Source: Candidatus Zhuqueibacterota bacterium
GTDB taxonomy: Bacteria > Zhuqueibacterota > Zhuqueibacteria > Zhuqueibacterales > Geothermadaptataceae
Direction of reading: 5' to 3'
DNA: 64,000 nt
NCBI GenBank assembly: GCA_030950365.1
Contig: JAUZRQ010000040.1
Location: 13,195-77,194, forward strand
Numbering within the stretch: position 1 is the first letter of the stretch; each line of letters begins with the position of its first letter. Position numbers and translations under genes: made by a program. This document shows, piece after piece, positions 27,058 to 45,685 of the stretch. The notes below the pieces were generated by a model that had not been told where the DNA came from, did no database searches, and saw only the letters and a program-made list of their open reading frames with translations.

Positions 27058-27060
27058 GGT

Positions 27061-28822: not shown

Positions 28823-28829
28823 GAAAAAT

Positions 28830-28843
28830 AGCGAAAATTCGCT
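28830..28843. promoter_or_regulatory. inverted repeat AGCGAA-AA-TTCGCT next to the aceBA -35 box (candidate operator)
   Basis: AGCGAAAATTCGCT. Further TTCGC half-sites at 28853-28861 and around 28895-28915 (tatttcgctgatagtgaaata), in the divergent aceB/regulator intergenic region. Confidence 0.3.
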
Positions 28844-29031
28844 AAAAAATATAAATTCGCCAATAAAGTAATTACGCAAATTATGAAAATTTTAGGTTAT
28901 TTCGCTGATAGTGAAATAATTTGTGGATTTTTGTGGCGTGGAATCTTATTTTATTGTTTAAGAATTCTGCTGAGGTGTAAAAAAGGGCAAGATACGTTGA
29001 AGATTACCAAATAGAAGTGGAGAGGATAAAA

Positions 29032-30540
29032 ATGGATGGAGATAACGTTCGTCTGATCCTCGGTTTCAAAGTGAAGCAATATCGTTTGAAACAGGGCTTA
29101 TCTTTAAAACAATTGGCTGCCCGCACGGGGCTTTCCATATCGTTTTTAAGCGAGATCGAGAAAGGGAAGAAATATCCAAAGCCTGAGAAAATTGTCCTTT
29201 TGGCACGGGCATTAGGTATTTCATTTGATGAATTGGTCTCAATGAAGATGGGAGAAGAGCTAGATTCCCTGAATGCGGTTTTAAATTCTTCTTTGCTGAA
29301 AGAATTTCCGTTTCATTTTTTTGGTATTGCACCGGGGGATTTTCTCGATTTGATTACCAGTTCACCGCAAAAAGCCGGTGCTTTCATCCGTACAATTTTA
29401 GAAATTGGCAAAGCGTATGACATGCATGTGGAACATTTTTATTTTGCTACTCTACGTTCGTATCAAAAACTCCACAACAATTATTTTGAAGAGATTGAGG
29501 TAGCAGCGGAACGCTTTGTACGCGAACAAAAATGGGATATGAATCCACCAATAAAAAAAGAACGTTTTCAAAAGATTCTTGAAGCGGACTATGGTTATGT
29601 AATCGATGAACAGACCCTAAACCAATATCCTGAATTGCAAAAATTTCGGTCGGTTTGGGTTGACTCGAAGCCCCCGAGGTTATTGGTGAATGAAAAATTG
29701 CTAGCGTCACAAAAAGCATTTATTTTAGGAAGAGAAATTGGTTACAATTATTTGGGACTCAAAGAAAGGGCTATCACGTCCTCATGGCTCAAAGTGCGAA
29801 GTTTTGAACAGGTACTCGACAATTTTAAAGCTTCATATTTTGCCGGTGCCCTCATGATAAATCGTGACCTGCTTTATGAGGATATATCAAAGTTTTTTCA
29901 AAATCAAAGTTGGGATGGGGAGGCATTTTTAGCTATGATGCGACGCTACGACGCCACACCCGAGATGTTTCTTTATCGTCTAAGCCAAATTATCCCCCGA
30001 TTCTTTGGATTAAAAGAAATTTTCTATTTGCGTTTTAATAATGCAGCAGGAAGCCAAAAATATCGCCTTACCAAAGAACTCAATATGTCCAGAGTCAATG
30101 TGCCTTACGGTATCGGCTTGAATGAACATTATTGTCGACGTTGGCTATCTATTAGTTTGCTGAACAGGTTAGCCGAGCAACAGAAACAGAGGAATGCAAA
30201 ATTTACCATTATTGCTGCTCAACGTTCTAAATTCATAGAAAGCGATGCAGAGTTCTTTACCATTACCCTGGCTCGTCCATTGGCACTAATCGAAGGGACA
30301 AATTCAAGTATGTCGATTGGTTTTTTGATGAACGATGATTTTAAACAAAGGGTACGTTTCTGGAACGACCCTAAAGTGCCAACGGTACGGGTTAATGAAA
30401 CCTGCGAACGCTGTGGTTTGAACCGTTCCGAATGCAGTGAGCGAGTGGCTCCACCTGAAATTTATCAACAGGTACAAACCCAGAAAGTGAGAGAGAAGGT
30501 TCTTGAAGAGATGCTTAAAAATTTCGACGCGATTCCGTAA
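29032..30540 (+). CDS. XRE-family regulator of the RamB/PrpR (short-chain acyl-CoA-responsive) type
   Basis: ORF 29017 (GTG); I prefer the ATG at 29032 after GGAGAGG. N-terminal HTH LKQGLSLKQLAARTGLSISFLSEIEKGKKYP, a long C-terminal domain, and the Cys cluster NETCERCGLNRSEC. Divergent from aceBA, as RamB-type regulators are in actinobacteria. Confidence 0.65.
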   Translation: MDGDNVRLILGFKVKQYRLKQGLSLKQLAARTGLSISFLSEIEKGKKYPKPEKIVLLARALGISFDELVSMKMGEELDSLNAVLNSSLLKEFPFHFFGIAPGDFLDLITSSPQKAGAFIRTILEIGKAYDMHVEHFYFATLRSYQKLHNNYFEEIEVAAERFVREQKWDMNPPIKKERFQKILEADYGYVIDEQTLNQYPELQKFRSVWVDSKPPRLLVNEKLLASQKAFILGREIGYNYLGLKERAITSSWLKVRSFEQVLDNFKASYFAGALMINRDLLYEDISKFFQNQSWDGEAFLAMMRRYDATPEMFLYRLSQIIPRFFGLKEIFYLRFNNAAGSQKYRLTKELNMSRVNVPYGIGLNEHYCRRWLSISLLNRLAEQQKQRNAKFTIIAAQRSKFIESDAEFFTITLARPLALIEGTNSSMSIGFLMNDDFKQRVRFWNDPKVPTVRVNETCERCGLNRSECSERVAPPEIYQQVQTQKVREKVLEEMLKNFDAIP

Positions 30541-31494
30541 AGATTTTTGTCATTTTCTTGATCAAACCCGTTTACGGTTTCCTTGGAAGATTTTACTTTG
30601 TTTTGAAGTATTCACATTACCATAAAATAATAAAGAGTGCTCTGATGATAGGCTAAGCGCTAAACGGTTGGTTGGTTTCAGCATTTTCACAGAAGGGCTG
30701 GATTTGAGCAAAATTTAAGGTTTTCGGGAACGATTGGCGCAGACCGATCTTGTCGACGACGAGTTTGCAGCAATGATTGAAGCGGTTCAATAATAGGGCT
30801 ATCATTGGGCTCGGGGCAAGATAGCGGTGAACGATGCAACGCTTGTGTCGGCCTGTCGGAGACCGTCGAAGGAGAATGAGCGGTCATGCTTGCAAACGGA
30901 GTCGGATGCGCGTACAGCCCCAAGGCCAGCAAATTGGATTTCGCCTAAGGGGGATATGTGGGGGGCAATGATGAGCTGGGGTTTGGAGAACACGCTTGTG
31001 TTACGGTTGCAAAGGTTTATGATTTTCAGGCGAATGATACTCGTTTGAAGGATCCAGATCAGGTAGTTTTGTCGATCTGACGAATGACCGTCCTATGCGA
31101 TTCCTGTCGTTTTACATTTGTGGCGTCCATGCAAAAAGGCTTGACCATGATGTGGCCAAAATTTTAACGCCCCTCAATGGCCTCCCAGGTTAATTGAATC
31201 GCAGAACATGGGAGCTAAAAGAAAAATAAAGAGTTCGTCAAAGCTCTTTTATGCAAGAGCCATTGATTCAGATTTGCATGAAGCAAAAATTCTGGTTAAA
31301 TTACATATTAACAAATTTGTAATTCTAACTTTTCTATTTTGTAAGAGCTGCATAGACAATTTTGAAATTTTACCGAATCGAGTCCCCAATTTTCTCCAGT
31401 TTTAAACGAGAAGTCGTAAACATCATCTACTTTATCCCACCATTATAGCCTTCTATTTTTCAAGCAATTGCCTGTCATCACGCTGAGGAGCTTT

Positions 31495-31521
31495 TGATGA
31501 ATTTCTCGCTGCATTTCATCA
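31495..31521. promoter_or_regulatory. 7-bp inverted repeat just upstream of the sigma-54 promoter
   Basis: TGATGAA-N13-TTCATCA, ending 13 nt before the -24 element. Confidence 0.3.
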
Positions 31522-31533
31522 AACGGTTTCTTC

Positions 31534-31549
31534 TGGCATTTTAATTGCT
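31534..31549 (+). promoter_or_regulatory. sigma-54 (-24/-12) promoter
   Basis: TGGCAT-TTTAA-TTGCT against the consensus TGGCAC-N5-TTGCW. GG and GC are spaced exactly 12 nt apart. It lies 108 nt upstream of the ATG at 31657. Confidence 0.7.
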
Positions 31550-31656
31550 TTAGGTACTGTGCCCAACAGGATGGACGACCAGAGCATCGTCTCAGGGAAA
31601 TTGGGGTTGTTCAATTAAGCTGTCTAACACGCACTGCAACCAGGAAAGAGACGACC

Positions 31657-33372
31657 ATGAGGAATCGTCAACCACGGAAGGATGGGATTCGATTTTTGGT
31701 TTTTGGGCTGTGGTTGCTCGGAATGATGGGTGGCCTGCAGGCGCAGGGCTATCAAATCTGGAATTCCGCTGATCGACAGTATCCCTGGTCCTCAGAGATC
31801 AATCCAGCGATTCTGCCTTTCCATAGCACGCAAATTTCGTTTGGCCTCAAGGTTTATCATTTCGGGTTTCTGCCGAATAGCGCTTTCGGTATTCGTGAAA
31901 ACCGCATCAATGCCAGTTTTCCGTTTTATTTGCCTTACGACATCGCCATTGGCGGGGCTTTGCGATATTTCAGCGCCGGACTGTATTCGGAAGTGGCGGC
32001 ATCGGTACTTTTGGGTTACGAAATCTGGCCGGCTTTGTCCATTGGCGCGAAGATCGGGCTTGAGCGTCGCGGTTTTCGTGCCGGAGATTTTGTGGGCTTC
32101 GATCCCAACGATCCCCTGCTGAAACGCGGTCTGGCCACGGTAAACCTCAACCTTGGAGTCGGGGCGTACTACGAAATGGACAACTGGCGTTTCGGGCTTG
32201 GTGTGGATCATGCCAATCGCCCGAATGTCGGACGACTGAACCAGGCCATTTATCCCCGTGAAATCTCGGCTTCGATTGCTTATCGGTACGGCAACATCAC
32301 CCCAACGTTGCTGATCCGAGATGATGGCGTGCGCTGGCGATTTGGCATGATCATCACCATGACGAAAAGCTCAGTCGGACAACTGCGCCTTGGCTACGAA
32401 CACTCCATGCCGATTAAGGTTGAAGCGCAACTTAACCTCAACCGCAACAGCCGTCTTGATTATGTCGTGGACCTGCCGAAGGAAGGCACGCGCGGTGCAT
32501 CGGCGGGCACGCAGGAATTGATTTATACACATATTCTCGGGCGGCGCCCGGAAATTGGCGAGCCGGTGATCCTGTTCACCACCAACAAGCTGGAAATTCT
32601 GGAAGAAACGGTGTACCGCAGCATGACGGCCGACCTGCGTATTGAAGAACTGCGCGCGTTTCCGGAACTTATTCCTGAATACATGAACACTACCGAACCT
32701 CATAATGAGAACATGCTGGTTGTGGTCGCCGGGCCGCTGAACAAATTTGAAACCAGAGAAGGTCGGCTCGATCGCCACCGTCGTTTGGCTAAAAGTATTG
32801 CCAAATATCTGGAAACAATCCCCACGCTTAATGCCTATCTGTTGGCTGAAGCTAGCACCTTGAAGGACGCACGTGAGATTCAGCGCGCCGTTGCGCGTCT
32901 AACAGCAGAAGCCACTCGCGTACAAATTGTCAAGCTGGTCTCCGGTAAGGGAAAATCCGATTTCCGAGGCTTTCAGCCTGGGCGAATCAGCATCGAGCGC
33001 AAAAAGCCGAAGCTATCGGCCAGCGAACTTGGAATTTATCTTGAGGTTCCAACCAAGACTCGCAAGACGCTGCACTGGCAGATGCGTATCTTAAATGCCC
33101 GGAATGAGCCTGTTGCTACCTTTTTAGGTAGCGGCAGACTGCCATATCGACTCACCTGGAACTGGCGCGACGACCGCGGCCGGCTGGTACAGCCCGGACG
33201 ATATATTTGCGATTTGCGGATTATGACCACCAGCGGCCGTGAAAGACACGTGGTATCCAAGCCAGTACAGGTTACCCTCATCCGTCGGCATGTGCGCATT
33301 CATTTCAAAGGCGACCCAGAATTCAAAACCTCCCAAACCGAGGAAGAAAGGTTTTCGTCCGGCGAGTTGTAA
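31657..33372 (+). CDS. outer-membrane protein: PorP/SprF-like beta-barrel N-domain plus C-terminal FlgD-Ig-like region
   Basis: Signal peptide (FLVFGLWLLGMMGGLQAQ). SEINPAILPF and GVGAYYEMDNWRFGLGVDHANRPNVG resemble PorP/SprF family blocks. The C-terminus LTWNWRDDRGRLVQPGRYICDLRI is FlgD-Ig-like. Confidence 0.5.
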   Translation: MRNRQPRKDGIRFLVFGLWLLGMMGGLQAQGYQIWNSADRQYPWSSEINPAILPFHSTQISFGLKVYHFGFLPNSAFGIRENRINASFPFYLPYDIAIGGALRYFSAGLYSEVAASVLLGYEIWPALSIGAKIGLERRGFRAGDFVGFDPNDPLLKRGLATVNLNLGVGAYYEMDNWRFGLGVDHANRPNVGRLNQAIYPREISASIAYRYGNITPTLLIRDDGVRWRFGMIITMTKSSVGQLRLGYEHSMPIKVEAQLNLNRNSRLDYVVDLPKEGTRGASAGTQELIYTHILGRRPEIGEPVILFTTNKLEILEETVYRSMTADLRIEELRAFPELIPEYMNTTEPHNENMLVVVAGPLNKFETREGRLDRHRRLAKSIAKYLETIPTLNAYLLAEASTLKDAREIQRAVARLTAEATRVQIVKLVSGKGKSDFRGFQPGRISIERKKPKLSASELGIYLEVPTKTRKTLHWQMRILNARNEPVATFLGSGRLPYRLTWNWRDDRGRLVQPGRYICDLRIMTTSGRERHVVSKPVQVTLIRRHVRIHFKGDPEFKTSQTEEERFSSGEL

Positions 33373-33449
33373 ATCTATTGAACTGAGCAATTATGCTTTG
33401 AATAAAAGACATGACAATTATTCCATAATCAACAATGGTGGAGAGTCCA

Positions 33450-34394
33450 ATGGTCATGAAATACTACTTTACAAAACTGAAGTGGCATTACCTGGCAATT
33501 CTGGTGGTTGCCGGTTTGATAATTGGTTCGATTTCGACCTCCCAAGCGGTCAACAAACGAAAGCAGGCGAAGGCGAAAACGACTCAGAAGGCGGAAGCGA
33601 AGCAGAATCAGGATGGGGCCGAAAAGGAACTTTCGGCGTGGGACATCATCGAAATGACCGACTGGCTTTTCTGGCCGTTCGTATTGCTTACCGGGACGGG
33701 GATTTTCCTGCTGAGTTACAAAGGCTTACAGGAATACCGTGAAAAGTCCCGGGCAAAATGGCTACTGGAGCAAAAAATCGGCTCCGGCGACATTCGGCGT
33801 GTGATTCGCATGGTGCAGACCAGCCAGCCCAACCGCGCTTCACGGCTGATGCACCAGATGATTGCGACGTTCAATAAGACCAAGCGCGCCGAGCCCATTG
33901 GCGATGACATTAACGCCTATTTGAATGCCGAACGAGACTCCTTTGAGACCTTCAACCGTGTGCTGGGCTTTTTGTCCGACACCGCCGGAGCACTAGGCTT
34001 GCTCGGAACGGTGTGGGGCATTTTTGAAACCTTCCACGCTGGCCGGCTGGATGGTCCAACCATTTTGCAAGGCATGAGTATTTCGTTAGTGACTACCCTG
34101 GTTGGTCTCATTATTAGCTTGTTTCTGAACATGGGCGCGACCGGCATCTTTGCCTTCTTCAATCGTCAGTTAAACATGCTGGCCAACCGGGCGGAAGAAT
34201 TGCGTCAGGCGTTGCTATACCTTGAGGCCAAATCCATGCGGGCGGAAAAGGTAACAGAACCCGAACCGCGCGTACGTACGGTGAATCCCGATCTGACCAT
34301 GGCAGCCGGCTCGCATCACCGCCGGCCAGCCGCGGAAGTTCCGGTCACCGAGGTGGAGTCGGCGGTGGTCGAAGAAGGAAACGGGTATCTCTAA
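33450..34394 (+). CDS. MotA/TolQ/ExbB proton-channel family protein
   Basis: ORF 33435..; ATG at 33450 after GGAGAG. Core LGFLSDTAGALGLLGTVWGIFETF...ILQGMSISLVTTLVGLIISLFLN. Unusual K/A/Q-rich insert after TM1 and an extended acidic C-terminus. Confidence 0.85.
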   Translation: MVMKYYFTKLKWHYLAILVVAGLIIGSISTSQAVNKRKQAKAKTTQKAEAKQNQDGAEKELSAWDIIEMTDWLFWPFVLLTGTGIFLLSYKGLQEYREKSRAKWLLEQKIGSGDIRRVIRMVQTSQPNRASRLMHQMIATFNKTKRAEPIGDDINAYLNAERDSFETFNRVLGFLSDTAGALGLLGTVWGIFETFHAGRLDGPTILQGMSISLVTTLVGLIISLFLNMGATGIFAFFNRQLNMLANRAEELRQALLYLEAKSMRAEKVTEPEPRVRTVNPDLTMAAGSHHRRPAAEVPVTEVESAVVEEGNGYL

Positions 34395-34420
34395 ACCACG
34401 CAGGGCGTGAGGAAAAGGCC

Positions 34421-35290
34421 ATGAAATCCATGATACAGTTGATAGCGACATCGTCCGCCGGCAGGTTGGTCCCAATCGCAGCCCTGTATGCGATGCTGAA
34501 TCTGAACGCACCGCTGTATGCCGGCAGCGAAGCGTGCAAGAGCGGCGAAACCTCGGTGGCGGGAAGTAGCGGCAATCCGCAACTCTGGATGGAAAAGCCG
34601 CAGATGGAGCTTTTGGCCGGCACCGCCTTCGAGCTGCGATTCCACGTCGGCGAGCCGAACAATCCGGTGCGCAGCCTGTTCGGCATCAGCTTCGAATTGC
34701 GCTATTCCGATGACCAGTACCTGGAATTTGCGCAGCCAACCGAGATATTGAAGGGTGATTTTCTAATGCCGGATGTGTACACCTTTATCCGCCATGAACA
34801 GGACCGCAAACTGATTTCGCTGGCCGTGAGCCGCAAACGTGGCGCACCGGGACAGAATGGTGACGGCGTGATTTTGCGCCTGCCGTTGAAACTGGCCGAC
34901 GAAGCGCCGGAAGGCTGGCAGGTATGTTTTCAGGTCAGCAACATCACGGCCAACGATTCCGTGGGCAATCGCATCGAGATCGACGCCGGGCCGATTTTGT
35001 GCCTGAAGGTCATCGCACCGGAAATCGATGTGGTGCCCAATCCGTTTACGCCCAATGGCGATGGTTTCAACGATCGCGTGCGTTTCAAGCGCGATGGCGG
35101 CATTCCGTCTGACTGGGTGATTTTGATCATGGACCGATCCGGCAGGATCATCCGTCGCCTGACCGATGGACGGGATGTCTGGGACGGCAGGGATGCGCAG
35201 GGACGTCCCATGCTGCCCGGCGCCTATCTGTATAGCATTCGCAAGGGCGATCGCGTCATCCGGCGCGGCCTTCTGGGACTGATTCGGTGA
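34421..35290 (+). CDS. cohesin-like domain protein with T9SS type B C-terminal sorting domain
   Basis: C-terminus PNPFTPNGDGFNDRVRF...ILIMDRSGRIIRRL...WDGRDAQGRPMLPGAYLYSI...GLLGLIR matches the gliding-motility-associated (type B) CTD pattern. The N-terminal module (FELRFHV...GISFELRYSDDQYLEF) is cohesin-like. Confidence 0.75.
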   Translation: MKSMIQLIATSSAGRLVPIAALYAMLNLNAPLYAGSEACKSGETSVAGSSGNPQLWMEKPQMELLAGTAFELRFHVGEPNNPVRSLFGISFELRYSDDQYLEFAQPTEILKGDFLMPDVYTFIRHEQDRKLISLAVSRKRGAPGQNGDGVILRLPLKLADEAPEGWQVCFQVSNITANDSVGNRIEIDAGPILCLKVIAPEIDVVPNPFTPNGDGFNDRVRFKRDGGIPSDWVILIMDRSGRIIRRLTDGRDVWDGRDAQGRPMLPGAYLYSIRKGDRVIRRGLLGLIR

Positions 35291-35366
35291 CGCATCGTCA
35301 TGCAGCACAAAGCAGGTACAATCCGTGGGATGATGGGAACGTGAAGGATGGCATAGGGACGACACC

Positions 35367-38282
35367 ATGAACGGCACCAATAACAAACATCGTCACCATG
35401 CGCTTGCGCGCACGTTCAACCGAAGCCGGATGGCCGCCTGGTTGGGCATCCTGGCTCTAATTTTTGGCATGACCGGTCCTGGATTGGCACAAATGGATGC
35501 CGGAATCGCTGCTGCCGGCCGGATTAGCGCGCTGTCGGGCGTGGCGAACCAGCTCAAATTGCATTATAACCGCGTGAACGCCACCGGCTTCCCGGTGATT
35601 GTTTCTTACGTGGTCGTGCAAAACGATTCTGGTTACAACATTGGTGATTTGAACGAAAACCATTTCGTGGTGCATGAAGACGGGGTCCGCGAATTGCCAA
35701 TCAAGGTCGAAGAGTTGACCGATTCCATTGGCGTGACGGTGGTGCTGGTGATTGACCGCAGCACCAGCATGCGCGGCCAGCCCATTGTGGATGCCCGGAA
35801 TGCCGCCGTGACATTTGTACAGCTCATGAATAAAAATGACGAAGCGGCCGTGGTCAGTTTCGCCAGCAAGGTGCGCACGGATTACACCTTTACCAACAAC
35901 AAGGATTCGCTGATCGCGGCCATCCAGGGCATCAATGCCAAGGGCGGCACGGCGATTTTCGATGCGTTGATTCATTCGGCCAAACTGATCGAGACGCGGC
36001 AGGGACAACGCGCCATCATTCTGCTGACGGACGGACATGACAAGGATAGCAACAGCACGTTGCAGGAGGCATTGAACGCGGTGAGGCCCACGGGCGTGCC
36101 AGTGTTCACGATCGGCCTGAATTTGGGGCGTGGCAGTCAGGAAGAACGCGTATTGCAGGACATCGCCGCCGCCACGGGCGGGCGTTACTACCGCAGCCCC
36201 AGTTCGGGTGATCTCAATGATATTTACAAAGCAATTTCGGCCTTGCTGCATCATGTGTATCGCATTACGTACACCACGCACAATCCAGCGCGCGATGGCA
36301 CGCTACGGCATGTCCGCATCACCGTCAATGCGCTGGGTTCGACATCATCCGATACGGCCAGCTACCGCGCACCGCTGGACCTGGTGACCTTTGCGCTGGC
36401 CTCCAGCGATGTGCCGGTGCCCGGCCGTACGTTCACGGTGCAATTGCGCATCCCCGACTCCAGTGTGCCGGTGTATGAGCTGCGACGGATGACATTCCGG
36501 CTGAAATTCGATGCGCGCTACCTGCGGGTGCCCAATCCGCTGGCGCAATCGGTGCGCGTGAGCAACCTGTTTGGCAGCGCCGGGGAGCACCGGGTGCAGG
36601 TCAGCGTGGATCAGCAGCGCGGCAACATCGATATCACGGTGGAGAAGACTACCGGTGGCCTTATCAATGGATTTGGCAAGCTAATGCAATTCACGTTTCA
36701 GGCCGACACCAGTCTGCCGGACCGTTTCCCGCTGGTGTTTTCGCTGCAGAATTTCCAGGCGTTCAATCGGGACAATGTGGCCATCCCAACGGAGACGGTG
36801 CCGTTGACCCTGCGGGCGTACGGCTACGTGACTTTCGCGCTGAATTCCGGGGATGTGCTGCGGCCGGGGAAGCCGTTTCGATTGCAACTGGAAATTCCGC
36901 CGGACACCAAGTCCCTGCCGGGACTGCAACATTTGAGCTTTATCATCAAGTTCGATCCCACTTATTTGAAAGTGGCCGATCCGCAAAACCAGGCGTTGCG
37001 GGGCGGCGTGCTGTTTGGCAGCAACTCGGAATTTCAACTCGATTACAGCGTGGATGCAAACCAGGGGCTGATCAATATGACGCTGTCCAGAAAGGCCGGC
37101 TTTACCATGGTGGCAGGACGTGGGGCCCTGGCCGAAATGCGGTTCGATGTCCGCTGGGACATGCCGGACAGCACGGAAGCCGCATTCGAAATTGTGAATC
37201 TGCTGGCCACGGACAGCCTGGGATGGAATTTGCCGGTGCAGTTGCGGCATTACCGCGACTGGAGCAACGGCATGACCGTCTGGCCGGGGGACACCAATCA
37301 CAACGGGGCGGTGGAGCTGAGTGATGTGAACATGCTGGGCATTTATTGGAGCATCCAGGGGCCGGGACGGCCGGATGAACCCGACCCGCTGGCCTGGAAG
37401 CCCCAGTATAGTGCCCGCTATCCAAAAAAATGGGCGGCGCACGCCGATGCCGATGGCAGTGGCAGAATCGACGAGCGCGATTTGATACCGATCGGACTGA
37501 ATTGGGGTAAAAACGTGCAGGCAGGATTTTATAAACAAAATGGAAAATCATTGTGGAACGAACCGCCCACCCCACAGGGTCGCATTGCGGCCTATTTAAA
37601 GCGGTTCGACGACAGTCGAGAATATCGCATTGTTCTCGAATATCAAACCGGAGAAAGCCAGGATTTGATGGGCATCACCTTGCGGCTACGCTATCCTGAG
37701 CGAACTCGGGTGGTGAGTGTGGAGCCCGGAGAGCTGTGGGCTTCGCAGCCGCTAATGCTGGTGCAGGATATTCCGCAGGAGCAGTTGCTGGCCATCGGGC
37801 TGATGCAGCCGGCTACGTCTACCAAGGCCATGTCCGGCGCGGTGCTGATGAGCATCGCCGTGGACCTGCCCGAAGCGGCGCTGAAAGACCTGCTAACGTT
37901 TGATTACATCGCTCTGGTCAATGCCGCCGGACAGGCCGTGGAAGTGCCCGTGTCGGAAGCCTGGCGCGATGGCAGCGCAACGGCCGTGCAGACTTTTCAG
38001 GTGTTGCCGGCTTATCCGAATCCATTCAACCCGTCCACGCGGGTGCGGTTTGCGCTGCCGCAGGCAGGAGAAATTTGGGTACGCATCTTCAATCTGCGCG
38101 GCCAGGCCATTCGCTCCGACCGCTGGCAACAGCCCATGCCCGGATTTTATGAATACCGCTGGAACGGGCAGGATCAGCACGGGCAGCCGGTAGGGTCCGG
38201 GGTTTATTTCGCCCATATTTATGTCAAACTGCGCGACGGGCAGACCTATCGGGCCAAACAAAAATGGACGCTGTTGAAATAA
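35367..38282 (+). CDS. large surface protein: vWA domain, three cohesin-like modules, dockerin-like EF-hand pair, T9SS type A C-terminal sorting domain
   Basis: vWA at aa ~122-300 (VVLVIDRSTSMRG...GGTAIFDAL...ILLTDGHD). Duplicated modules VTFALASSDVPVPGRTFTVQLRIP...FRLKFDARYLRV and VTFALNSGDVLRPGKPFRLQLEIP...FIIKFDPTYLKV. Ca-loop-like DTNHNGAVELSD and DADGSGRIDERD. C-terminus YPNPFNPSTRVRFALPQAGEIWVRIFNLRGQ...SGVYFAHI. Probable start is Met22 at 35430 (MAAWLGILALIFGMTGPGLAQ). Confidence 0.8.
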   Translation: MNGTNNKHRHHALARTFNRSRMAAWLGILALIFGMTGPGLAQMDAGIAAAGRISALSGVANQLKLHYNRVNATGFPVIVSYVVVQNDSGYNIGDLNENHFVVHEDGVRELPIKVEELTDSIGVTVVLVIDRSTSMRGQPIVDARNAAVTFVQLMNKNDEAAVVSFASKVRTDYTFTNNKDSLIAAIQGINAKGGTAIFDALIHSAKLIETRQGQRAIILLTDGHDKDSNSTLQEALNAVRPTGVPVFTIGLNLGRGSQEERVLQDIAAATGGRYYRSPSSGDLNDIYKAISALLHHVYRITYTTHNPARDGTLRHVRITVNALGSTSSDTASYRAPLDLVTFALASSDVPVPGRTFTVQLRIPDSSVPVYELRRMTFRLKFDARYLRVPNPLAQSVRVSNLFGSAGEHRVQVSVDQQRGNIDITVEKTTGGLINGFGKLMQFTFQADTSLPDRFPLVFSLQNFQAFNRDNVAIPTETVPLTLRAYGYVTFALNSGDVLRPGKPFRLQLEIPPDTKSLPGLQHLSFIIKFDPTYLKVADPQNQALRGGVLFGSNSEFQLDYSVDANQGLINMTLSRKAGFTMVAGRGALAEMRFDVRWDMPDSTEAAFEIVNLLATDSLGWNLPVQLRHYRDWSNGMTVWPGDTNHNGAVELSDVNMLGIYWSIQGPGRPDEPDPLAWKPQYSARYPKKWAAHADADGSGRIDERDLIPIGLNWGKNVQAGFYKQNGKSLWNEPPTPQGRIAAYLKRFDDSREYRIVLEYQTGESQDLMGITLRLRYPERTRVVSVEPGELWASQPLMLVQDIPQEQLLAIGLMQPATSTKAMSGAVLMSIAVDLPEAALKDLLTFDYIALVNAAGQAVEVPVSEAWRDGSATAVQTFQVLPAYPNPFNPSTRVRFALPQAGEIWVRIFNLRGQAIRSDRWQQPMPGFYEYRWNGQDQHGQPVGSGVYFAHIYVKLRDGQTYRAKQKWTLLK

Positions 38283-38294
38283 AGGATTCGGGCG

Positions 38295-38726
38295 ATGGAA
38301 CACAAACGCGAGTATGTGGAAAGCAAACGCAACAATTTGATGATCCGTCTGATCGACATCGTGTTCATCCTGCTGTTCGGATTTATCGCGGTGTCGCAGA
38401 TCAGCAATGCGGAGGCCATCGATCCGGCCAAAAGCACCGAAGCCAAGCAGGGGGCGCCCGACGGCGCGGTGATCCTCATCGTGGGCGTGCATGCCGATGG
38501 TATGTTCACGGTGGATCGGGATTCGAAAAGATTTCGCCGGTTGCGCGACCTGCGGCGCTATCTGGTGGCGCTGCAATCCGAACTGCGCGCGGAGGGGAAA
38601 GACCTCGGCGTGCGCATCCGGGCCAACTGGGACGCGCCGACCCGCTACAGCATGCAGGTGGCGCGCCTCTGCCGCGACCTCGGCATTCCCAAAGGGTTGG
38701 ATGTGGTGCGGGTGCTGGATAAATAA
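38295..38726 (+). CDS. ExbD/TolR family biopolymer transport protein
   Basis: N-terminus NNLMIRLIDIVFILLFGFIAVS (single TM typical of ExbD/TolR), with a periplasmic domain of about 100 aa. Confidence 0.8.
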   Translation: MEHKREYVESKRNNLMIRLIDIVFILLFGFIAVSQISNAEAIDPAKSTEAKQGAPDGAVILIVGVHADGMFTVDRDSKRFRRLRDLRRYLVALQSELRAEGKDLGVRIRANWDAPTRYSMQVARLCRDLGIPKGLDVVRVLDK

Positions 38727-38782
38727 CAGGACAAAAGGAGCAAGCCCATGTCCACGATCTGGATGCATGGAGGTGGTGAGAC

Positions 38783-39178
38783 GTGAATAACAATCGCCTG
38801 ATGATCCGCCTGATCGATGTGGCGCTGATCATTCTGTTGGGATTTATCGCCATCAGCCGGTTGAAAACCGAGTACGTGGATTTGCCCGCGCCCGGCGATG
38901 CGGAGCCACCACGGATGCGGATGCACATGGCGGATTTGCACGTATACCGCGCCCGTTATGTGCTGGTTGACGGCCGCCGCAAAAAGCAGGTGCGCGATCT
39001 CGATAGCCTGGAACGGCTGCTGCAACGAACCAAAACGGTCTATCGACAAAAAGGCGCGAAACTGGTGATGAACATTCAGCCGCATCGATCCAGCATCATG
39101 CAGGACCTGATCGATGTGCTGGATGTCTGTCAACGGAACCGAATTGAGAAGAACCTGAACTATGACCGCATTAACTGA
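38783..39178 (+). CDS. ExbD/TolR family biopolymer transport protein (second copy)
   Basis: GTG start preceded by GGAGGTG. NRLMIRLIDVALIILLGFIAIS. Paralog of the preceding gene. Confidence 0.8.
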   Translation: MNNNRLMIRLIDVALIILLGFIAISRLKTEYVDLPAPGDAEPPRMRMHMADLHVYRARYVLVDGRRKKQVRDLDSLERLLQRTKTVYRQKGAKLVMNIQPHRSSIMQDLIDVLDVCQRNRIEKNLNYDRIN

Positions 39179-40247
39179 ATACATCGCGAAGCAGGATCGA
39201 CTGCTGAATCTGTCGCTGGCCATCACCGTCGGCGTCCTGTTGCTGATTTTTATCATTATGCAATTGCTGTCGTTCATTCCGTTACAGATGGATGACGACC
39301 GTGAGAAGCAAATGGTGGTGCAGGAACTGGTAAAACTGCGCTTTGACAAGAAAAAACAAAAGGCGCCGGTGCAGAAATTCAGAGGCCGTACGCGGCAGAA
39401 CACCCGGCCGAAAAAATCGGTGAAGGTGTCGCGCAAAAAAGCCTCCAGGCGGTCGAAGCCACAGGTGAATGTAGAAAAGCTGTTACAGGAATTCAAATCC
39501 AAGAAACTGGTGGCCAACAAAACCACCAACCGCCGCACCGTGGTGAAAGTGCCTTCGCCGCCGAAATCCGGTGTGAGTTTGAATGTAAAGCGGCAAACGC
39601 GCGGCGTCACCGATAATTCGTTGAAGACGCCGTTCAGGAGCCGGCCGGCGCGCCGACCCAGTGGCAGAAAAGCCGTTGCCGGGGTGGTTTCGGGTGCGGC
39701 GGTGGAGGTTGGTGCGGTGTCGCCAAATCTGGCCAACGTTACCTCGGTCAACGGCTCCGGTTTTCGATCGGCCAAAGGCATGCGCGCCACGCGCAGTGCG
39801 GGCAGTGGCGCCGGCAGTGCGCAAATATCCCTGCCCACCGGCGAGGGCGGCGGCAGCGAGGCCACTATCGATCTGCATGCATTGATCAAATGGATGAAAG
39901 AACATCCCGGTCCCATTCCCAAGTTAGTGGCGCACGAGATGGGCCATGAGCGCGGCGACCTGTCCTCAAAGGTGTCGTTCCGTTACCGTGGCCGGCAATA
40001 TACATTCTTTTTGTCATGCAATGAGCACGAATTATTTTTACGTGTGTGTCTTGTGGAAGGCAACGATTTCATTTTACTCAAGGATAGCGGCATTCAGGAA
40101 GAGAGTCACTTTCTCACTATCGGTGATGTCATCCGCCGCCGCGGCCGCATCGAATCGTTGATTAGCTCGCGCAAAGCTCCTGGCGATCGCGCGGATCAGT
40201 TTTATTCGATTTTCTGGGCGTGGTGGCAAACGGTAGAGAAAAAATAG
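39162..40247 (+). CDS. TonB/TolA-position membrane-anchored protein with K/R-rich linker and unrecognised C-terminal domain
   Basis: Overlaps the ExbD stop by 17 nt. N-terminal TM (LSLAITVGVLLLIFIIMQLL), basic tract (KKKQKAPVQKFRGRTRQNTRPKKSVKVSRKKASRRSKP...), and a Ser/Gly/Ala-rich linker. The C-terminal ~130 aa has no TonB_C-like motif that I can see. Confidence 0.45.
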   Translation: MTALTEYIAKQDRLLNLSLAITVGVLLLIFIIMQLLSFIPLQMDDDREKQMVVQELVKLRFDKKKQKAPVQKFRGRTRQNTRPKKSVKVSRKKASRRSKPQVNVEKLLQEFKSKKLVANKTTNRRTVVKVPSPPKSGVSLNVKRQTRGVTDNSLKTPFRSRPARRPSGRKAVAGVVSGAAVEVGAVSPNLANVTSVNGSGFRSAKGMRATRSAGSGAGSAQISLPTGEGGGSEATIDLHALIKWMKEHPGPIPKLVAHEMGHERGDLSSKVSFRYRGRQYTFFLSCNEHELFLRVCLVEGNDFILLKDSGIQEESHFLTIGDVIRRRGRIESLISSRKAPGDRADQFYSIFWAWWQTVEKK

Positions 40248-40298
40248 CAGGTTAAATTTGAGCAACAAAAAACCGACCGGAACCGAACGTTAGCGGCA

Positions 40299-41819
40299 AT
40301 GAACAACAAAGGGATGGCGATTATGAAGGTGAGGGATTACCGCTGGTTTGCGCTGCTGAGCTTTGGTATGGCGCTTATTCTGCTGTCGGCCTGTGCTTTG
40401 CCGCTGCGGCGGCCCACGAAGCGGGTGCTGCGCGTGCCACCGGGCCTTGATAGCACCACGGTGGTGCAGGCCAATCGGCTGGCCAATGAGAATTTCGTTT
40501 CGGCACGCCGAGAAAACGAAGCCAGAAAACACGCCGAGGTCGGCAAAAAGAGCCTGAAACGCGTGGATGATTTCTGGGCGTATCTTGAGCAACGCGTCGA
40601 GCGCAATCCGATGTCTGCAAGCGAGCAGGCTCAGTTCGACCGCGAGATGGCCAAGGGCGCGCAGGCGCTGCAGCGCTGGAAAGCGCTGACCAAGAATGGC
40701 ACTGATGAACGAGCCTTTCAGCGGGCGCTACAATATTGCTTGAAAGCGCAACAGCACCTGGAAACCGCCGTGCGGCTGAATCCGTTTGACAAAAATGCCC
40801 GTCTGTTGCTGGCGGTGACCTACTACAACCTGCAAAACATCTTCGGCCAGGATCAAAACTTCAAGAAGGCCGTTGAAATTCTGGAGCGCTTAACCCGCAT
40901 TGAAAAAGGCGAGCATGACCTGTTCCGGCTGCTGGCCGAAAATTACATGCAGCTCAAAGACTACCGCCGGGCGCTGGAAAATTTCGCCCGCGCCGAAACC
41001 GTGCTAATCAAAACCAGCTTTGAAGCGCCACCGGATACCGCCACGCTGTTCTATTACGCCTACATGCAGGGCGATATGTACGCGCGGCTGTACAATGCAC
41101 CGGCCGCGGTGAAAAAGTTCGCCATGGCCAAAACTTATGCGCGCACGGAGCAGGAGCGCAAGGATGTGGAAAACTACCTTGCGTGGATCAACTGGGATGG
41201 CGGCAATATTCGCGCGTCCGAAGTCTGGGATGAAATTCTGGCGCTGGAAGCGAAGAAATCCTACGACCGCATGGCGCGGTTATGCAAAAAACTGCTGCCG
41301 AAGTTACAAACCAAAAAGGCCAAACTGGCGGTGCATCACAAACTGGCCGTGGTCGAATTTGAGTTTCTCAATCGCAAGGAAACGGCGGTGGAGCGCATGA
41401 AGGCCGTATATGAGGCGCTCGGGGCGGTGGCGCAGAGCCGAAACCGGCCGCCGGAAGTGCAGCAGTATCTGGACACCTATGGCGCCATGCTGTACCGAAT
41501 GGGCGTGGATGCGCTGGAGCGACAACAGAAAAAACTGGCGCTGGCCTATTTCACCAAATCCATCGAGTTCGACTGGAATCAGGTGGCTAAATCGTACGTG
41601 GAGATGGTCACGCTGCTCTGGAACAGCCCGGAAAAAGCGATCTATTTCGGTGAAAAAGCGCTGGCGCATGCCGAGGGCGCCTTGTCGAGCCGGGAATCCT
41701 GTGAGTTGCTGTCCCTCATGGTGAAGGCGCACAAAAGCGCCGGGCTCTACGACAAAGCGCGTGACTATTTTCAACAATGGAAACAGTGTCGCATGGAAAA
41801 CAACGTCGGGAGTGAATGA
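40299..41819 (+). CDS. TPR-repeat lipoprotein
   Basis: Probable start Met9 at 40323 (MKVRDYRWFALLSFGMALILLSACALP, lipobox). The remainder is TPR-like helical repeats. Confidence 0.7.
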   Translation: MNNKGMAIMKVRDYRWFALLSFGMALILLSACALPLRRPTKRVLRVPPGLDSTTVVQANRLANENFVSARRENEARKHAEVGKKSLKRVDDFWAYLEQRVERNPMSASEQAQFDREMAKGAQALQRWKALTKNGTDERAFQRALQYCLKAQQHLETAVRLNPFDKNARLLLAVTYYNLQNIFGQDQNFKKAVEILERLTRIEKGEHDLFRLLAENYMQLKDYRRALENFARAETVLIKTSFEAPPDTATLFYYAYMQGDMYARLYNAPAAVKKFAMAKTYARTEQERKDVENYLAWINWDGGNIRASEVWDEILALEAKKSYDRMARLCKKLLPKLQTKKAKLAVHHKLAVVEFEFLNRKETAVERMKAVYEALGAVAQSRNRPPEVQQYLDTYGAMLYRMGVDALERQQKKLALAYFTKSIEFDWNQVAKSYVEMVTLLWNSPEKAIYFGEKALAHAEGALSSRESCELLSLMVKAHKSAGLYDKARDYFQQWKQCRMENNVGSE

Positions 41820-42469
41820 TGAAAGGAATTCGTTGTTTGATTCTGGTGTTGATCGGCACGGCCGTGGCGCCCATCGTCTCCGCGCAGACACAATCGGGAG
41901 TGCTTGTGGATCAGGTGCTCATGCAGAACGCCACGGTCACGAATCCACGGCTGATCCGCTTTTTCGCCGAGGATTTCATGATCCCGGAAGAAAAAATCGA
42001 CAAGATGGTGATCTACGATCTCACCGGTGACGGTTTCGGTGAAGGAGATCTGGCGCGCACGTTCCCCGGTGGCAAGTTTTATCTGATCACGCCGACCGAA
42101 AACGCCCAGCGCATCATGAACGGCTGGAGTTTCGGCGGCAATGTCAAGTTTACGGCGGACAGCGATGATCCACCAGAGCTGTTCGAGAATGCGCCGGATT
42201 CTGTACGCGCCATGGGCGGTATTTTTGCCGCCTTGCTGCGGGGCCTGCGGCGCAATTACAAAGGCCAGCCGATCAAATTGCATCTGGAACAACGCAACGG
42301 CGTGACCTCGGTGGAACTGTGGGGCTACGATCCGCGGTTGATGATCTATCAGCCGCCGCCGGTCAACAAAGTCCCCGAGCAGGTGCCGGTGATGAAGCTG
42401 ATTTACCTGGAAAAGTCCATCGTCGATTCGGTGTTTACTGGCGAAGTCCGGCCGAAGGGTGGATTTTAG
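41816..42469 (+). CDS. secreted hypothetical protein
   Basis: 4-nt overlap with the upstream stop. Signal peptide MMKGIRCLILVLIGTAVAPIVSAQ. No recognisable domain. Confidence 0.6.
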   Translation: MMKGIRCLILVLIGTAVAPIVSAQTQSGVLVDQVLMQNATVTNPRLIRFFAEDFMIPEEKIDKMVIYDLTGDGFGEGDLARTFPGGKFYLITPTENAQRIMNGWSFGGNVKFTADSDDPPELFENAPDSVRAMGGIFAALLRGLRRNYKGQPIKLHLEQRNGVTSVELWGYDPRLMIYQPPPVNKVPEQVPVMKLIYLEKSIVDSVFTGEVRPKGGF

Positions 42470-42590
42470 TGAAAATTCTTTGAAGCCATGAATTCACGCG
42501 GGCCAGGCACAGGATGTGGCCAGCGTGTTGGCAGCTACGATTTTTCCCAGGCAGCTCCCGTACTATTGTTGTAATCCCTCCCCCCATGCG

Positions 42591-42620
42591 AGCGAGCCCG
42601 GAACACGGGCTCGCTTTTTT
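42591..42620 (+). terminator. rho-independent terminator closing the 31.6-42.5 kb operon
   Basis: AGCGAGCCCG-gaaca-CGGGCTCGCT followed by TTTTT. Confidence 0.85.
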
Positions 42621-42633
42621 AATAGGTGACAAC

Positions 42634-42667
42634 CACGCTGGCAGGGTTCCCAGTCCCTGCCAGCGTG
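42634..42667. terminator. 13-bp perfect hairpin between convergent operons (possible terminator of the response-regulator gene)
   Basis: CACGCTGGCAGGG-ttcccagt-CCCTGCCAGCGTG, 29 nt beyond the stop at 42696. No U-tract on either strand. Confidence 0.45.
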
Positions 42668-42695
42668 AATCAATGCCATTCCAGAAACCGGTCCA

Positions 42696-44063
<1,368 letters not shown>

Positions 44064-44176
44064 GTTGACTCCACAACAAGATTGGTTTTCGTTTCAGTCC
44101 TCGTGTCCTGGCCAAAAACGCTCCCGCTCTCCCGATATCGACGTTTGGGAGTGCGAATGGTAAGGCCGGATTGGCG

Positions 44177-45685
44177 CTATCCCGTTACCGGCAGGCGGAT
44201 TTCAAACCGCGTCCACTCGCCGGGCTGGCTATCTACCGCAATATGCCCGCCGTGTTCCTCGATGATGCGCCGCACGATGGCCAGGCCCAGGCCCATGCCG
44301 TGTTTTTTGGTGGAAAAATACGGCTCCCAGATCTTCGCCCGGATGTCTTCCGGGATGCCGGTGCCGGTGTCTTCGATCCACAAAAGCACCTGGTCATCGG
44401 CCATGCGCGTGGTGATGCGGATGGCGCCGCCGCCTTTTTTCTCCAGACTCTGCAACGCATTTTCAATCAAATTGATCAGGACGCGGCGAAGCTGATCGGG
44501 ATCGAAGCGGAAGCGAGGCACGTTTGCACCAAGCTGCATTTGAATATTCGCATCCGGATACAGGCGGATGATGTCGTGGATCAGCTCGTTGAGATCGCCA
44601 TCGAGGCGCTGCAGCTCCGGCATGCGGGCAAATTCCGAAAACGCGCGCACCAGGTTCTGCAGCGATTTGATCTCGTCGTTGATGATGGCGCTGCATTCCT
44701 GCAGCAGTCTGCGGTACGACTCGTCATCACCGGCGTACTTGTCGCGAAGCTGCTGGATGGTCAGTTGAATCGGAGTAAGCGGGTTTTTGATTTCGTGCGC
44801 CAGCACCCGCGCCATTTCTCGCCACATGGCCATTTTTTCCAGCGCAATGACCTGCTGCTGCTTCTCGTGCAAATTCTGCACCATGAGGTTGAACGATTCC
44901 GCTAACTGGCCCAACTCATCGCGCGATGACACGCTGACCCGGTGCTCCCAGTTGCCGGCGGCGACCTCCTGTGTTGCGGCGGCCAGTTCCCGGATCGGCC
45001 GTGAAATCCGCCGCGACAGCGCGATGCCCAGACCGATGGAAATCAAACTGATGGGAATGTAGATCACAAAAAAGGCCATCAGAAAGCTGCGCTGCAAATC
45101 CTCGCGGAAAAAGCCGAGGGTTTTGAACATCTGGTTGACATCCACAATCTGTTGAAAACGCGAGGTGAAGCCAGCATCCAGTCCGCGGGTTAGCACCAGC
45201 AGGCCGGCACCGTTGCGAAGCGGCACTGCCGCGGAGATGAACTGTGGCTGCTGCGGATGGTCGATGATCTGCGGCCGGGCTTCCTGCAGCAGTGGATGGA
45301 TACGGTTCATGAACAGCGACGGAAAGCTCGCCGATTCGGTGGCGCGCTCGAAGACCAGCGTGCCTTTACGGTCATAGAGCTGCACGCGCATTGGAAGCGA
45401 ATCGGGCAGGGCACCTGCGAGGGCTCCGGTCATCGACCAGTCGTTGCCGCGCGCGCCAAAACGCTCGGCCACCATTTCGGCCTGCCGCAGCGTCTGCTGT
45501 TTGTATTCCGAAAGCAGCCTGCGGGACAGTTGTGTGGCATTTTCCAGCGCCTGTTCGACTTTGGCGTTGAAGCCCACCTCGAGACTTTTCTTAAAAAAAT
45601 CATTGACTACGAAATACAGCGGCAGCACCGGCAACAGCGATACGAACAGAATGGCCAGAATGAGTTTGGTTTGAATGCGAATCAT
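44177..45685 (-). CDS. sensor histidine kinase, NtrY-like (2 TM, HAMP, HisKA, HATPase_c)
   Basis: N-terminal TM, a periplasmic segment, a second TM plus HAMP (ALSRRISRPIRELAAATQEVAAGNWEHRV). H-box LAHEIKNPLTPIQLTIQQL is NtrY-type. G-boxes DTGTGIP and GMGLGLAIV. Confidence 0.9.
   Translation of the reverse strand: MIRIQTKLILAILFVSLLPVLPLYFVVNDFFKKSLEVGFNAKVEQALENATQLSRRLLSEYKQQTLRQAEMVAERFGARGNDWSMTGALAGALPDSLPMRVQLYDRKGTLVFERATESASFPSLFMNRIHPLLQEARPQIIDHPQQPQFISAAVPLRNGAGLLVLTRGLDAGFTSRFQQIVDVNQMFKTLGFFREDLQRSFLMAFFVIYIPISLISIGLGIALSRRISRPIRELAAATQEVAAGNWEHRVSVSSRDELGQLAESFNLMVQNLHEKQQQVIALEKMAMWREMARVLAHEIKNPLTPIQLTIQQLRDKYAGDDESYRRLLQECSAIINDEIKSLQNLVRAFSEFARMPELQRLDGDLNELIHDIIRLYPDANIQMQLGANVPRFRFDPDQLRRVLINLIENALQSLEKKGGGAIRITTRMADDQVLLWIEDTGTGIPEDIRAKIWEPYFSTKKHGMGLGLAIVRRIIEEHGGHIAVDSQPGEWTRFEIRLPVTG

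Follow-up and report, generated by a model that had tools for sequence, protein, structure and literature searches.

The nine genes and their products

The window analysed here is a stretch of 64,000 nucleotides from a Candidatus Zhuqueibacterota bacterium (GenBank assembly GCA_030950365.1, contig JAUZRQ010000040.1, positions 13,195 to 77,194 of the forward strand), and it contains nine same-strand genes, g1 to g9 (Table 1), which bring together an ExbB/ExbD-like motor, an outer-membrane barrel of the PorP/SprF type, and surface proteins with type IX secretion system (T9SS) C-terminal domains (CTDs). A first-pass annotation, made from the letters of the sequence and the open reading frame translations, had described nine tightly packed genes between a near-consensus -24/-12 promoter at 31534 and a strong terminator near 42591. 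The reading frames lie where it had put them, with an intergenic spacing of 12-76 nt, an overlap of 17 nt between the end of g6 and the start of g7 (39162/39178), and an overlap between the stop codon of g8 and the start codon of g9 (ATGA, 41816/41819). The terminator ranks first among the sites predicted in 30500-43000, and the promoter element, which reads TGGCATTTTAATTGCT, is present as well and is discussed below together with its conservation.

The putative stator protein g2 starts with an N-terminal signal or transmembrane (TM) segment and a Lys-rich extension, and matches the MotA_ExbB profile (PF01618) with 51.4 bits. Neither its TM2 motif LGTVWGIF (at aa 190) nor its TM3 motif SLVTTLVG (at aa 217) varies among 22 relatives, and its assignment to the MotA/ExbB stators is thus well founded. 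The protein misses all equivalog cut-offs of the characterised members (32.7 versus 221 for TolQ, 16.3 versus 206 for ExbB, 18.6 versus 341 for PomA), and the profile of its own family scores about 20 bits alike against solved ExbB, TolQ and PomA. Since g2 falls far under every equivalog cut-off, it is, judged by these scores, a distinct deep branch of the MotA/TolQ/ExbB family and not an ortholog of ExbB or TolQ. A relationship to the anti-phage system Zorya was rejected, as g2 gave only a generic 22.8-bit match to the MotA region of ZorA and there was no further PADLOC match in support. The products of g5 and g6 both pass the ExbD profile (PF02472; 35.3 and 36.4 bits, respectively, versus a gathering threshold (GA) of 25.4) and each has the transmembrane Asp (RLIDIVFILL in g5, RLIDVALIIL in g6), so that there are indeed two ExbD genes. 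They represent two separate ortholog groups, with g5 sharing 50-57% identity with its own orthologs and 25-30% with g6.

The g7 protein had been described as a membrane-anchored, K/R-rich protein in the TonB/TolA position, and an AlphaFold2 (AF2) model based on an alignment of 32 sequences agrees with this description: it consists of a TM helix (aa 3-37), a disordered linker rich in K/R and G/S (aa 38-233, pLDDT <50) and a globular end domain (aa 234-361, pLDDT ~85). This end domain of about 125 aa (nt 39861-40244) is modelled as an alpha/beta fold with two helices, six strands and a long C-terminal helix; it is the most conserved part of the protein in all four phyla in which the cluster is found, with the motifs LIxWMK and SWW. 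The linkers of the more distant g7 proteins (type 2, see below) are Pro/Glu-rich, as in TonB. There was no Pfam or NCBIfam match for g7, and its 52 homologs are all annotated as hypothetical and lack a Pfam domain. None of the 32 aligned family members matched TonB_C, TonB_2 or TolA at E<=1, a Foldseek search of the PDB with the model returned nothing under E=0.1 (neither TonB nor TolA), and neither protein was among the PDB sequence matches. A canonical TonB C-terminal domain, which the first-pass annotation itself had named as the finding that would make this an ordinary TonB cluster with inserted cargo genes, was therefore searched for and not found, and the candidate of a canonical TonB was dropped. 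On the model, g7 is TonB/TolA-like in build and position and stands outside that family, and the predicted fold of its end domain is novel.

Two other candidate relationships of g7 were rejected. The PDB sequence matches that were obtained (best E 3e-5) were all to antibody light chains or scFv and were judged to be spurious; they rest on the likeness between WMKxHPGxIPKLV and WYQQKPGxAPKLLIY and on the G/S-rich linker. At the start of the end domain (window 39861-40100) the sequence WMKEHPGPIPKLV resembles the antibody light-chain framework WYQQKPGKAPKLLIY, which gives many weak PDB matches, and since the AF2 model has helices there and no Ig strands, the likeness is taken to be coincidental. 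An HExxH metalloprotease was also considered, but the first His of AHEMGH is a Tyr in many orthologs. Among 1.84 billion representative proteins, only 218 clusters match at a threshold of E<=1e-3, and 139 match at E<=1e-10; almost all have a length of 330-370 aa and end in this domain. The domain also terminates some far longer chains (P0200 with 1330 aa, P0317 with 632 aa, P0261 and P0313 with ~560 aa).

The g1 protein has a signal peptide, a PorP/SprF barrel (approximately aa 30-290, nt 31744-32526), a conserved middle domain (aa 291-465) and a FlgD-Ig-like C-terminal domain (aa 466-560, nt 33052-33336) with the motif W-x-W-R-D..G..V.PG.Y. As it passes the PorP_SprF profile (PF11751; 35.1 bits versus GA 22.3) and misses the stricter NCBIfam model TIGR03519 (44.8 bits, under the cut-off of 90.55), it is regarded as a divergent member of the PorP/SprF family. 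The PorP_SprF profile was matched by all 23 family members compared, and the FlgD_ig profile by 13 of the 23 (it was not significant in the window g1 alone), while the matches of the tail to solved FlgD structures in the PDB were weak (E 0.04-0.07); the earlier description as a PorP/SprF-like protein with a FlgD-Ig-like tail is thereby retained. The C-terminal extension of about 280 residues is kept in 23/23 members in an alignment that spans four phyla, and is presumably periplasmic. PorP-like proteins are known to bind type B CTD cargo at the cell surface, as with SprF-SprB and PorP-PG1035, PorP also binds the periplasmic PorE, and both PorP and PorV are 14-stranded proteins of the FadL family (PMC9143113). 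A gene for a type B CTD protein adjoins g1 here also: in the window this is g3, two genes downstream, and in the type-2 loci it is directly upstream of g1.

The surface proteins are encoded by g3 and g4. The g3 protein has a signal peptide, a cohesin-like module (~aa 58-195) and a T9SS type B CTD (aa 205-289), the latter above the cut-off of both TIGR04131 (40.1 bits versus 35) and CHU_C (35.8 versus 27); its N-terminal module is homologous to the cohesin-like modules of g4 (BLASTP 1e-7 and 3e-5), and both parts of the earlier call are upheld. The g4 protein has a signal peptide and a von Willebrand factor type A (VWA) domain (aa 125-288, nt 35739-36230, 88.3 bits). Scanned separately, its residues 342-645 matched the Cohesin profile PF00963 in two stretches (38.9 bits versus GA 24.1), and the third module, like that of g3, was assigned by BLASTP similarity. 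Between the cohesin-like modules lies a dockerin-like pair (nt 37272-37526) with the calcium-loop repeats GDTNHNG (aa 641) and DADGSGRID (aa 694), and the C-terminal segment (aa 880-971) is a type A CTD, which is marginal by TIGR04183 (23.4 bits versus a cut-off of 23), scores just 17.8 bits with Pfam Por_Secre_tail, and also matches the CTDs of PorU (1.4e-9) and PorZ. Of the domains that had been read into g4, VWA, cohesin and (marginally) the type A CTD are thus above threshold, whereas the dockerin-like pair is visible in the sequence but stays under its profile threshold.

The last two genes encode a lipoprotein with tetratricopeptide repeats (TPRs) and a secreted protein without a family, as had been noted. 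The g8 protein has the lipobox LSAC, a Cys after the signal peptide being shared by essentially every one of 30 orthologs, and matches TPR_12, TPR_19 and related models in two stretches (aa 144-236 and aa 398-425). At 12-20 residues past this Cys, nearly every ortholog of g8 has a conserved PPGLDSTTV motif (window 40389-40450, aa 31-50). The g9 protein has a signal peptide and the motifs DGFG..D and NY, which are conserved in four phyla; none of 22 members matched a Pfam or NCBIfam model, and there was no PDB sequence match. A homology search with g9 and the g1 tail joined into a single query gave only four proteins. Over the whole set, the profile searches support the PorP/SprF, cohesin, VWA, ExbB and ExbD assignments and those of both CTD types.

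Table 1. Positions of the genes and other features of the window (nucleotides, position 1 being the first letter of the window).
Feature	Position	Strand	Description
sigma-54 -24/-12 element	31534-31549	+	TGGCAT-N5-TTGCT, 108 nt 5' of g1 ATG
g1	31657-33372	+	571 aa, PorP/SprF-type barrel and tail
g2	33435-34394	+	319 aa, MotA/TolQ/ExbB-family stator
g3	34421-35290	+	289 aa, cohesin-like module and T9SS type B CTD
g4	35367-38282	+	971 aa, VWA, three cohesin-like modules, dockerin-like pair, type A CTD
g4 cohesin-like modules	36384-36776, 36819-37241, 37599-37976	+	Cohesin profile, BLASTP
g5	38295-38726	+	143 aa, ExbD/TolR paralog 1
g6	38783-39178	+	131 aa, ExbD/TolR paralog 2
g7	39162-40247	+	361 aa, TonB/TolA-like topology
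g8	40299-41819	+	506 aa, TPR lipoprotein
g9	41816-42469	+	217 aa, secreted, no family match
intrinsic terminator	42590-42622	+	11-bp stem with 8 G-C pairs, 5-nt loop, T-run
NtrC-type regulator and HAMP kinase	42696-45685	-	convergent to nine-gene operon
isocitrate lyase	25750-27057	-	low-GC stretch
malate synthase	27061-28677	-	low-GC stretch
HTH_3 and Peptidase_M78 regulator	29017-30540	+	low-GC stretch

Conservation of gene order, promoter and cargo

A profile of the ExbB-like relatives was scanned over one genome per GTDB species, which gave 53 loci, of which L001-L037 were relevant, and the nine window proteins were mapped to these loci by tblastn. Related genomes keep the genes together, and two gene orders can be distinguished. 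The type-1 order, g1-g2-cargo-g5-g6-g7-g8-g9, is found in full in 22 loci at 40-60% protein identity, in KSB1, Calditrichota/Caldithrix and Zhuqueibacterota metagenome-assembled genomes (MAGs), some of which are mislabelled as Deferribacteres or Cytophagia. The type-2 order, in which a TPR gene and the gene for a large type B CTD protein precede g1-g2-g5-(g6)-g7-g8-g9, is found in about 15 loci at 20-40% identity, in Rhodothermales, Gemmatimonadota and as second copies in the same KSB1 MAGs. The ortholog groups of g5 and g6 are retained in both locus types, while the Gemmatimonadota loci have a single ExbD. The separation of the stator gene from its ExbD partners by cargo genes, to which the first-pass annotation had drawn attention, is a stable trait of the type-1 clade, as the order recurs in 22 loci; it is not general, since the type-2 loci have the cargo moved upstream of g1. 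From these comparisons, the conserved core comprises the long-tailed PorP-like barrel, the ExbB-like stator, one or two ExbD proteins, g7, the TPR lipoprotein and g9, together with a type B CTD surface protein.

Two observations on individual loci may be added. L012 and L013 are one and the same 29,941-bp contig present in two MAGs (labelled KSB1 and Phycisphaerae), which looks like a binning duplicate. In a number of type-2 loci (L024 at 9587-11671, and L022, L023, L025, L026, L029, L030 and L033-L035) the ExbB-like open reading frame is 520-690 aa long and has C-terminal Big_1 or Invasin_D3 Ig-like domains, and this fusion, which is unusual for a stator subunit, would imply either an extra membrane crossing or a separate gene call.

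The link of the motor cluster to a PorP-like protein and type B cargo holds in 34/37 loci. Several genomes have more than one copy of the cluster (L007/L029, L005/L030, L006/L031, L025/L032 and L034/L035), every copy being equipped with a separate PorP-like gene and separate cargo, which fits one motor per anchor-cargo module better than a housekeeping function.

With regard to the cargo, the combination of g3 and g4 is found in the window and its closest relatives. Six loci (L003, L008, L011 and L014-L016) encode up to three proteins (at least one) that join a VWA domain directly to a type B CTD, and these loci also carry a DUF3344-SdrD_B protein whose CTD is of type A, while the type-2 cargo is a protein of about 1050 aa with FG-GAP, Ig and CARDB domains and a type B CTD (L024, L036). 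By their domain content, all kinds of cargo are adhesion-type modules placed around an unvarying core, and the cohesin/dockerin pair appears as one cargo option that is not essential to the system. The cohesin/dockerin/VWA surface assembly of the first-pass annotation is accordingly present in the window but is not a defining part, as other loci have VWA-CTD or FG-GAP proteins in its stead. Because the sister loci fuse VWA straight to a type B CTD, g4 would be tethered to g1 indirectly, via g3, which suggests that the VWA protein of the window is held by the PorP-like anchor through g3 as an adaptor, perhaps by cohesin-dockerin pairing.

The predicted sigma-54 promoter upstream of g1 was examined in the same genomes. 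In the window the exact pattern TGGCAY-N5-TTGCW occurs twice versus 0.41 expected, a count which by itself is poor support; the other match (5169-5184) lies within a TPR gene (4534-5793) and is probably due to chance. Across the type-1 loci, TGGYAY-N5-TTGC is present 90-210 nt 5' of the g1 ortholog in 21/21 loci examined, with GG and TTGC invariant, and the strict pattern occurs just 22 times in 1.25 Mb (both strands, L001-L037), approximately 20 of these being at the site upstream of g1. Judged by this conservation, the element is a real, phylogenetically conserved promoter, as had been proposed for the window, and sigma-54 control in turn suggests conditional expression. The type-2 loci do not have a sigma-54 element at a consistent position, and no convincing enhancer-like repeat was seen upstream of the promoter in the window. 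Just past the terminator lies a convergent operon (42696-47698, minus strand), whose products are a sigma-54 response regulator of the NtrC type, a histidine kinase with HAMP, a DUF4390 protein and a protein of the Omp85/POTRA kind. The regulator and kinase were considered as dedicated activator of the nine genes, a role that is unsupported as this adjacency is missing in other loci.

A candidate motor acting on a PorP-anchored adhesin

The gene content, the motor motifs and the topology of g7 can be combined into one model. In this model g2, g5 and g6 would together make up a 5:2-type motor in the inner membrane that is driven by protons. Motors of the ExbBD/TolQR class pass their force on to the outer membrane by way of a membrane-anchored protein with a long linker, and g7 would likewise carry the force of the motor across the periplasm. 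The tail of g1, together with g8 and g9 in the periplasm, would provide the docking site for the g7 end domain, while the barrel of g1 would hold g3 at the surface by its type B CTD. The g3 protein would serve as adaptor for the large adhesin g4, which would exit via the T9SS by means of its type A CTD. The motor could then pull or turn the g1-adhesin complex, so that the adhesin is moved, tensioned, exposed or released, although the contacts between the proteins and the effect of such a force are what we infer from the sequences.

We lean towards the view that the nine genes encode a dedicated trans-envelope machine that is driven by the proton-motive force (PMF) and acts on a PorP-anchored adhesin, and hold it with moderate confidence. 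A dedicated PMF-energised envelope machine had also been proposed in the first-pass annotation, and is supported by the synteny, the motor motifs and the conserved promoter; none of the refuting findings that the annotation had listed was encountered. The function given to it there, to display or remodel the surface assembly, is a hypothesis. The multiple copies, the sigma-54 control and the variable cargo around a fixed core speak against a housekeeping function of the Ton or Tol kind and in favour of a separate motor for each adhesin module.

A number of observations weigh against such a machine. The His of the SHLS motif is absent from the TM helix of g7 in 32 + 12 aligned members, with only Ser18 being nearly invariant. 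The middle domain of g1 has no assigned fold, the AF2 model of g9 (two-sequence alignment) has a pLDDT of 34 and no usable fold, and the Dockerin_1 profile (PF00404) scored 19 bits with g4, under its GA of 22.9 (E 0.0017). At two loci (L025 and L034) there was no g1 match at E<1e-4 beside the motor genes. Finally, at L054 (8213-11870 in CP070762.1, a closed 5.2-Mb chromosome) genes for a PorP-like protein of 575 aa, an ExbB-like protein of 306 aa and a bare VWA protein of 312 aa are followed by unrelated genes, with no ExbD, g7, g8 or g9 within 10 kb. This is the sole clear break in synteny, and it means either that the two halves of the cluster are separable or that this copy has decayed.

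The L054 locus, with PorP-ExbB-VWA but without the downstream genes, would also be expected if a PorP/cargo module had merely come to lie beside an independent, orphan motor cluster. Such a chance association is very improbable, however, as the synteny spans four phyla at 20-45% identity and survives rearrangement with every core gene kept, and as the genes of the window overlap (39162/39178 and 41816/41819) and share one conserved promoter and one terminator.

The gene order also parallels that of tolQ-tolR-tolA-tolB-pal-cpoB, and the cluster could thus serve a Tol-Pal-like function in envelope maintenance, with g7 as TolA, g9 as TolB and g8 as Pal or CpoB, and with unrelated cargo genes inserted. 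The Bacteroidota are without canonical Tol-Pal, and PorE has been proposed as a compact analogue, maybe using a TolA/TonB-like transducer (PMC12204202). Nevertheless, TolB, OmpA/Pal and TolA domains are absent from g8 and g9 in profile searches, genomes have at least two paralogous copies with different adhesin cargo each, sigma-54 control points to conditional expression, and a cargo link in 34 of the 37 loci is unlike random insertion, so that we attach a low probability to this explanation.

A further alternative is that the motor does not act on a finished adhesin but is an accessory energiser for export or mounting of the type B cargo or of the barrel, alongside GldLM/PorLM or replacing it. 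The motor genes always adjoin a PorP-like gene and CTD-bearing cargo, PorP-like proteins are thought to take type B cargo from the translocon (PMC9143113), and TPR lipoproteins and periplasmic proteins, to which g8 and g9 may be compared, are often assembly factors. Against this, type B cargo such as SprB of Flavobacterium requires for its secretion just the general T9SS and the cognate protein of the PorP type (PMC9143113), none of the nine proteins matched the GldL or GldM profiles, and a long TonB-like linker fits force transmission more than chaperoning. We consider an energiser of this kind to be unlikely, though deserving of attention, and retain the adhesin-pulling machine as the preferred model.

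As to the surroundings of the operon, the region 24000-32000 of the window has a low GC content (0.41-0.47 versus 0.55-0.60 elsewhere) and contains genes for isocitrate lyase, malate synthase and a regulator (Table 1), and may be a horizontally acquired glyoxylate-shunt island. The sigma-54 promoter is located in an AT-rich, non-coding stretch of 1.1 kb (30541-31656). Neither the Rfam scan nor the tRNA scan gave a match in the window.

Comparison with known systems

To our knowledge, 5:2 motors that run on protons and are coupled to the outer membrane come in few forms, which are Ton, Tol, Agl-Glt and GldLM, and we know of PorP/SprF-type anchors merely as passive partners in the T9SS. Full-text searches of the literature did not give any paper that links PorP/SprF-like proteins with ExbB/ExbD, in line with the statement of the first-pass annotation that it knew of no described system of this composition. 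A private motor with a new transducer domain, tied to a PorP-type anchor and an adhesin, would add a member to the 5:2-motor class. We put forward only as a tentative possibility, and one that we would not yet call probable, that the cluster represents a separate family of 5:2 motors beside Ton, Tol, Agl-Glt, GldLM and Zorya, in which the g7 end domain is a new type of transducer that pulls PorP/SprF-anchored adhesins; KSB1, Calditrichota, Rhodothermales and Gemmatimonadota would then have a motor-per-adhesin system for surface movement, force-dependent adhesion or regulated unmasking that does not depend on the canonical T9SS motor. The pairing of motor and anchor in the nine-gene set may be a hitherto undescribed means by which bacteria pull or move their adhesins; it would provide a genomic handle on mechanically driven type B CTD adhesins, and would give a function to three families that now lack one (the end domain of g7, the g9 protein and the tail of g1). 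It would also allow a direct test of the recent proposal that the transducer of PorP/PorE modules resembles TolA or TonB (PMC12204202). Both Rhodothermales and Gemmatimonadota include cultured species, and the system is therefore open to genetics.

The Ton systems, including exbB-exbD-exbD-tonB-TPR clusters such as FSU_2400-2403 of Fibrobacter, which lies beside genes for TPR and OmpA proteins (PMC6851124), share with the nine genes the stator, two ExbD proteins, a long-linker protein encoded downstream, a TPR gene and the proton-binding residues. They differ in that the nine-gene cluster has no TonB C-terminal domain, no SHLS His and no TonB-dependent receptor as partner, that its stator is under the ExbB equivalog score, and that the PorP-like protein and the T9SS cargo are integral to it. 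This comparison bears on another possible function, namely energised uptake, in which g7 would open the PorP-like channel of the FadL family as TonB does with its receptors, and the VWA, cohesin or FG-GAP proteins would capture substrate as SusD-like or surface-glycan-binding proteins do. The ExbB-ExbD-ExbD-'TonB'-TPR order is like that of Ton clusters of Bacteroidota and Fibrobacter (PMC6851124), and PorP and PorV do belong to the FadL family (PMC9143113). However, the cluster is without a TonB_C domain, TonB box, plug domain or TonB-dependent receptor (there were no Plug or TonB_dep_Rec domains in the nine proteins), no PorP/SprF protein is known as a transporter, and VWA, FG-GAP and cohesin are adhesion or protein-protein interaction modules that are not known to bind nutrients. 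A canonical TonB-dependent receptor with an N-terminal CarboxypepD_reg domain and a Plug domain is present elsewhere in the window (14039-16474, 15 kb from the operon, and the only one in the window), and the genome is thus expected to encode an ordinary TonB system separately. Energised uptake by the nine-gene cluster is therefore regarded as improbable.

The SprF-SprB and PorP-PorE-PG1035 modules (PMC9143113) share with the adhesin-pulling machine proposed here the position of a PorP/SprF barrel gene beside that of a type B CTD protein which the barrel presumably anchors, and the occurrence of several such pairs per genome. While these known modules are motorless, SprB being powered by GldLM, the cluster described here has its own motor, transducer, TPR lipoprotein and g9; g1 also has the 280-aa extension, and the cluster is without a PorE-like gene. 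The motor of the T9SS itself, GldLM/PorLM, is similar in being PMF-driven, in acting on outer-membrane or surface components of the T9SS, and in occurring in the Fibrobacteres-Chlorobi-Bacteroidetes (FCB) group. There was no detectable sequence relationship, and GldM is a rigid dimer that spans the periplasm, whereas g7 has a disordered linker.

Force transducers with a VWA domain that are tethered to the inner membrane adjoin tolQ, tolR and TPR genes in several phyla, including Bacteroidetes and Rhodothermaeota, and their function is unknown (PMC12204202). In those proteins VWA is the end domain of the transducer, whereas here the position of the transducer is taken by g7 with another end domain, and the VWA protein g4, having a signal peptide and a T9SS CTD, is taken to be a secreted surface protein.

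In terms of function, the closest parallel is probably the Agl-Glt system of Myxococcus. There, the TolQR-type AglRQS acts via the TonB-like GltG and GltJ on an outer-membrane platform that controls the VWA adhesin CglB (work on this adhesin is cited in PMC12204202), a logic to which the action proposed for the nine-gene set is similar. An ancestral 'core complex' of Agl-Glt (aglRQS + gltCDEG), with an unknown function, is encoded by a single operon outside the Myxococcales and is also found in Fibrobacter (PMC3169522). Like the nine-gene set, Agl-Glt has one TolQ-like and two TolR-like subunits, a protein of TonB topology, TPR proteins, one or more outer-membrane barrels and a VWA adhesin, and each would be one dedicated machine that is neither Ton nor Tol, a likeness that is one of composition and not of sequence comparison. 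The two differ in that GltG and GltJ have a TonB_C domain while g7 is without, and in that the cluster is without the cytoplasmic, MglA/MreB-linked parts; in addition, the nine-gene set uses a barrel of the T9SS PorP/SprF type and adhesins with T9SS CTDs.

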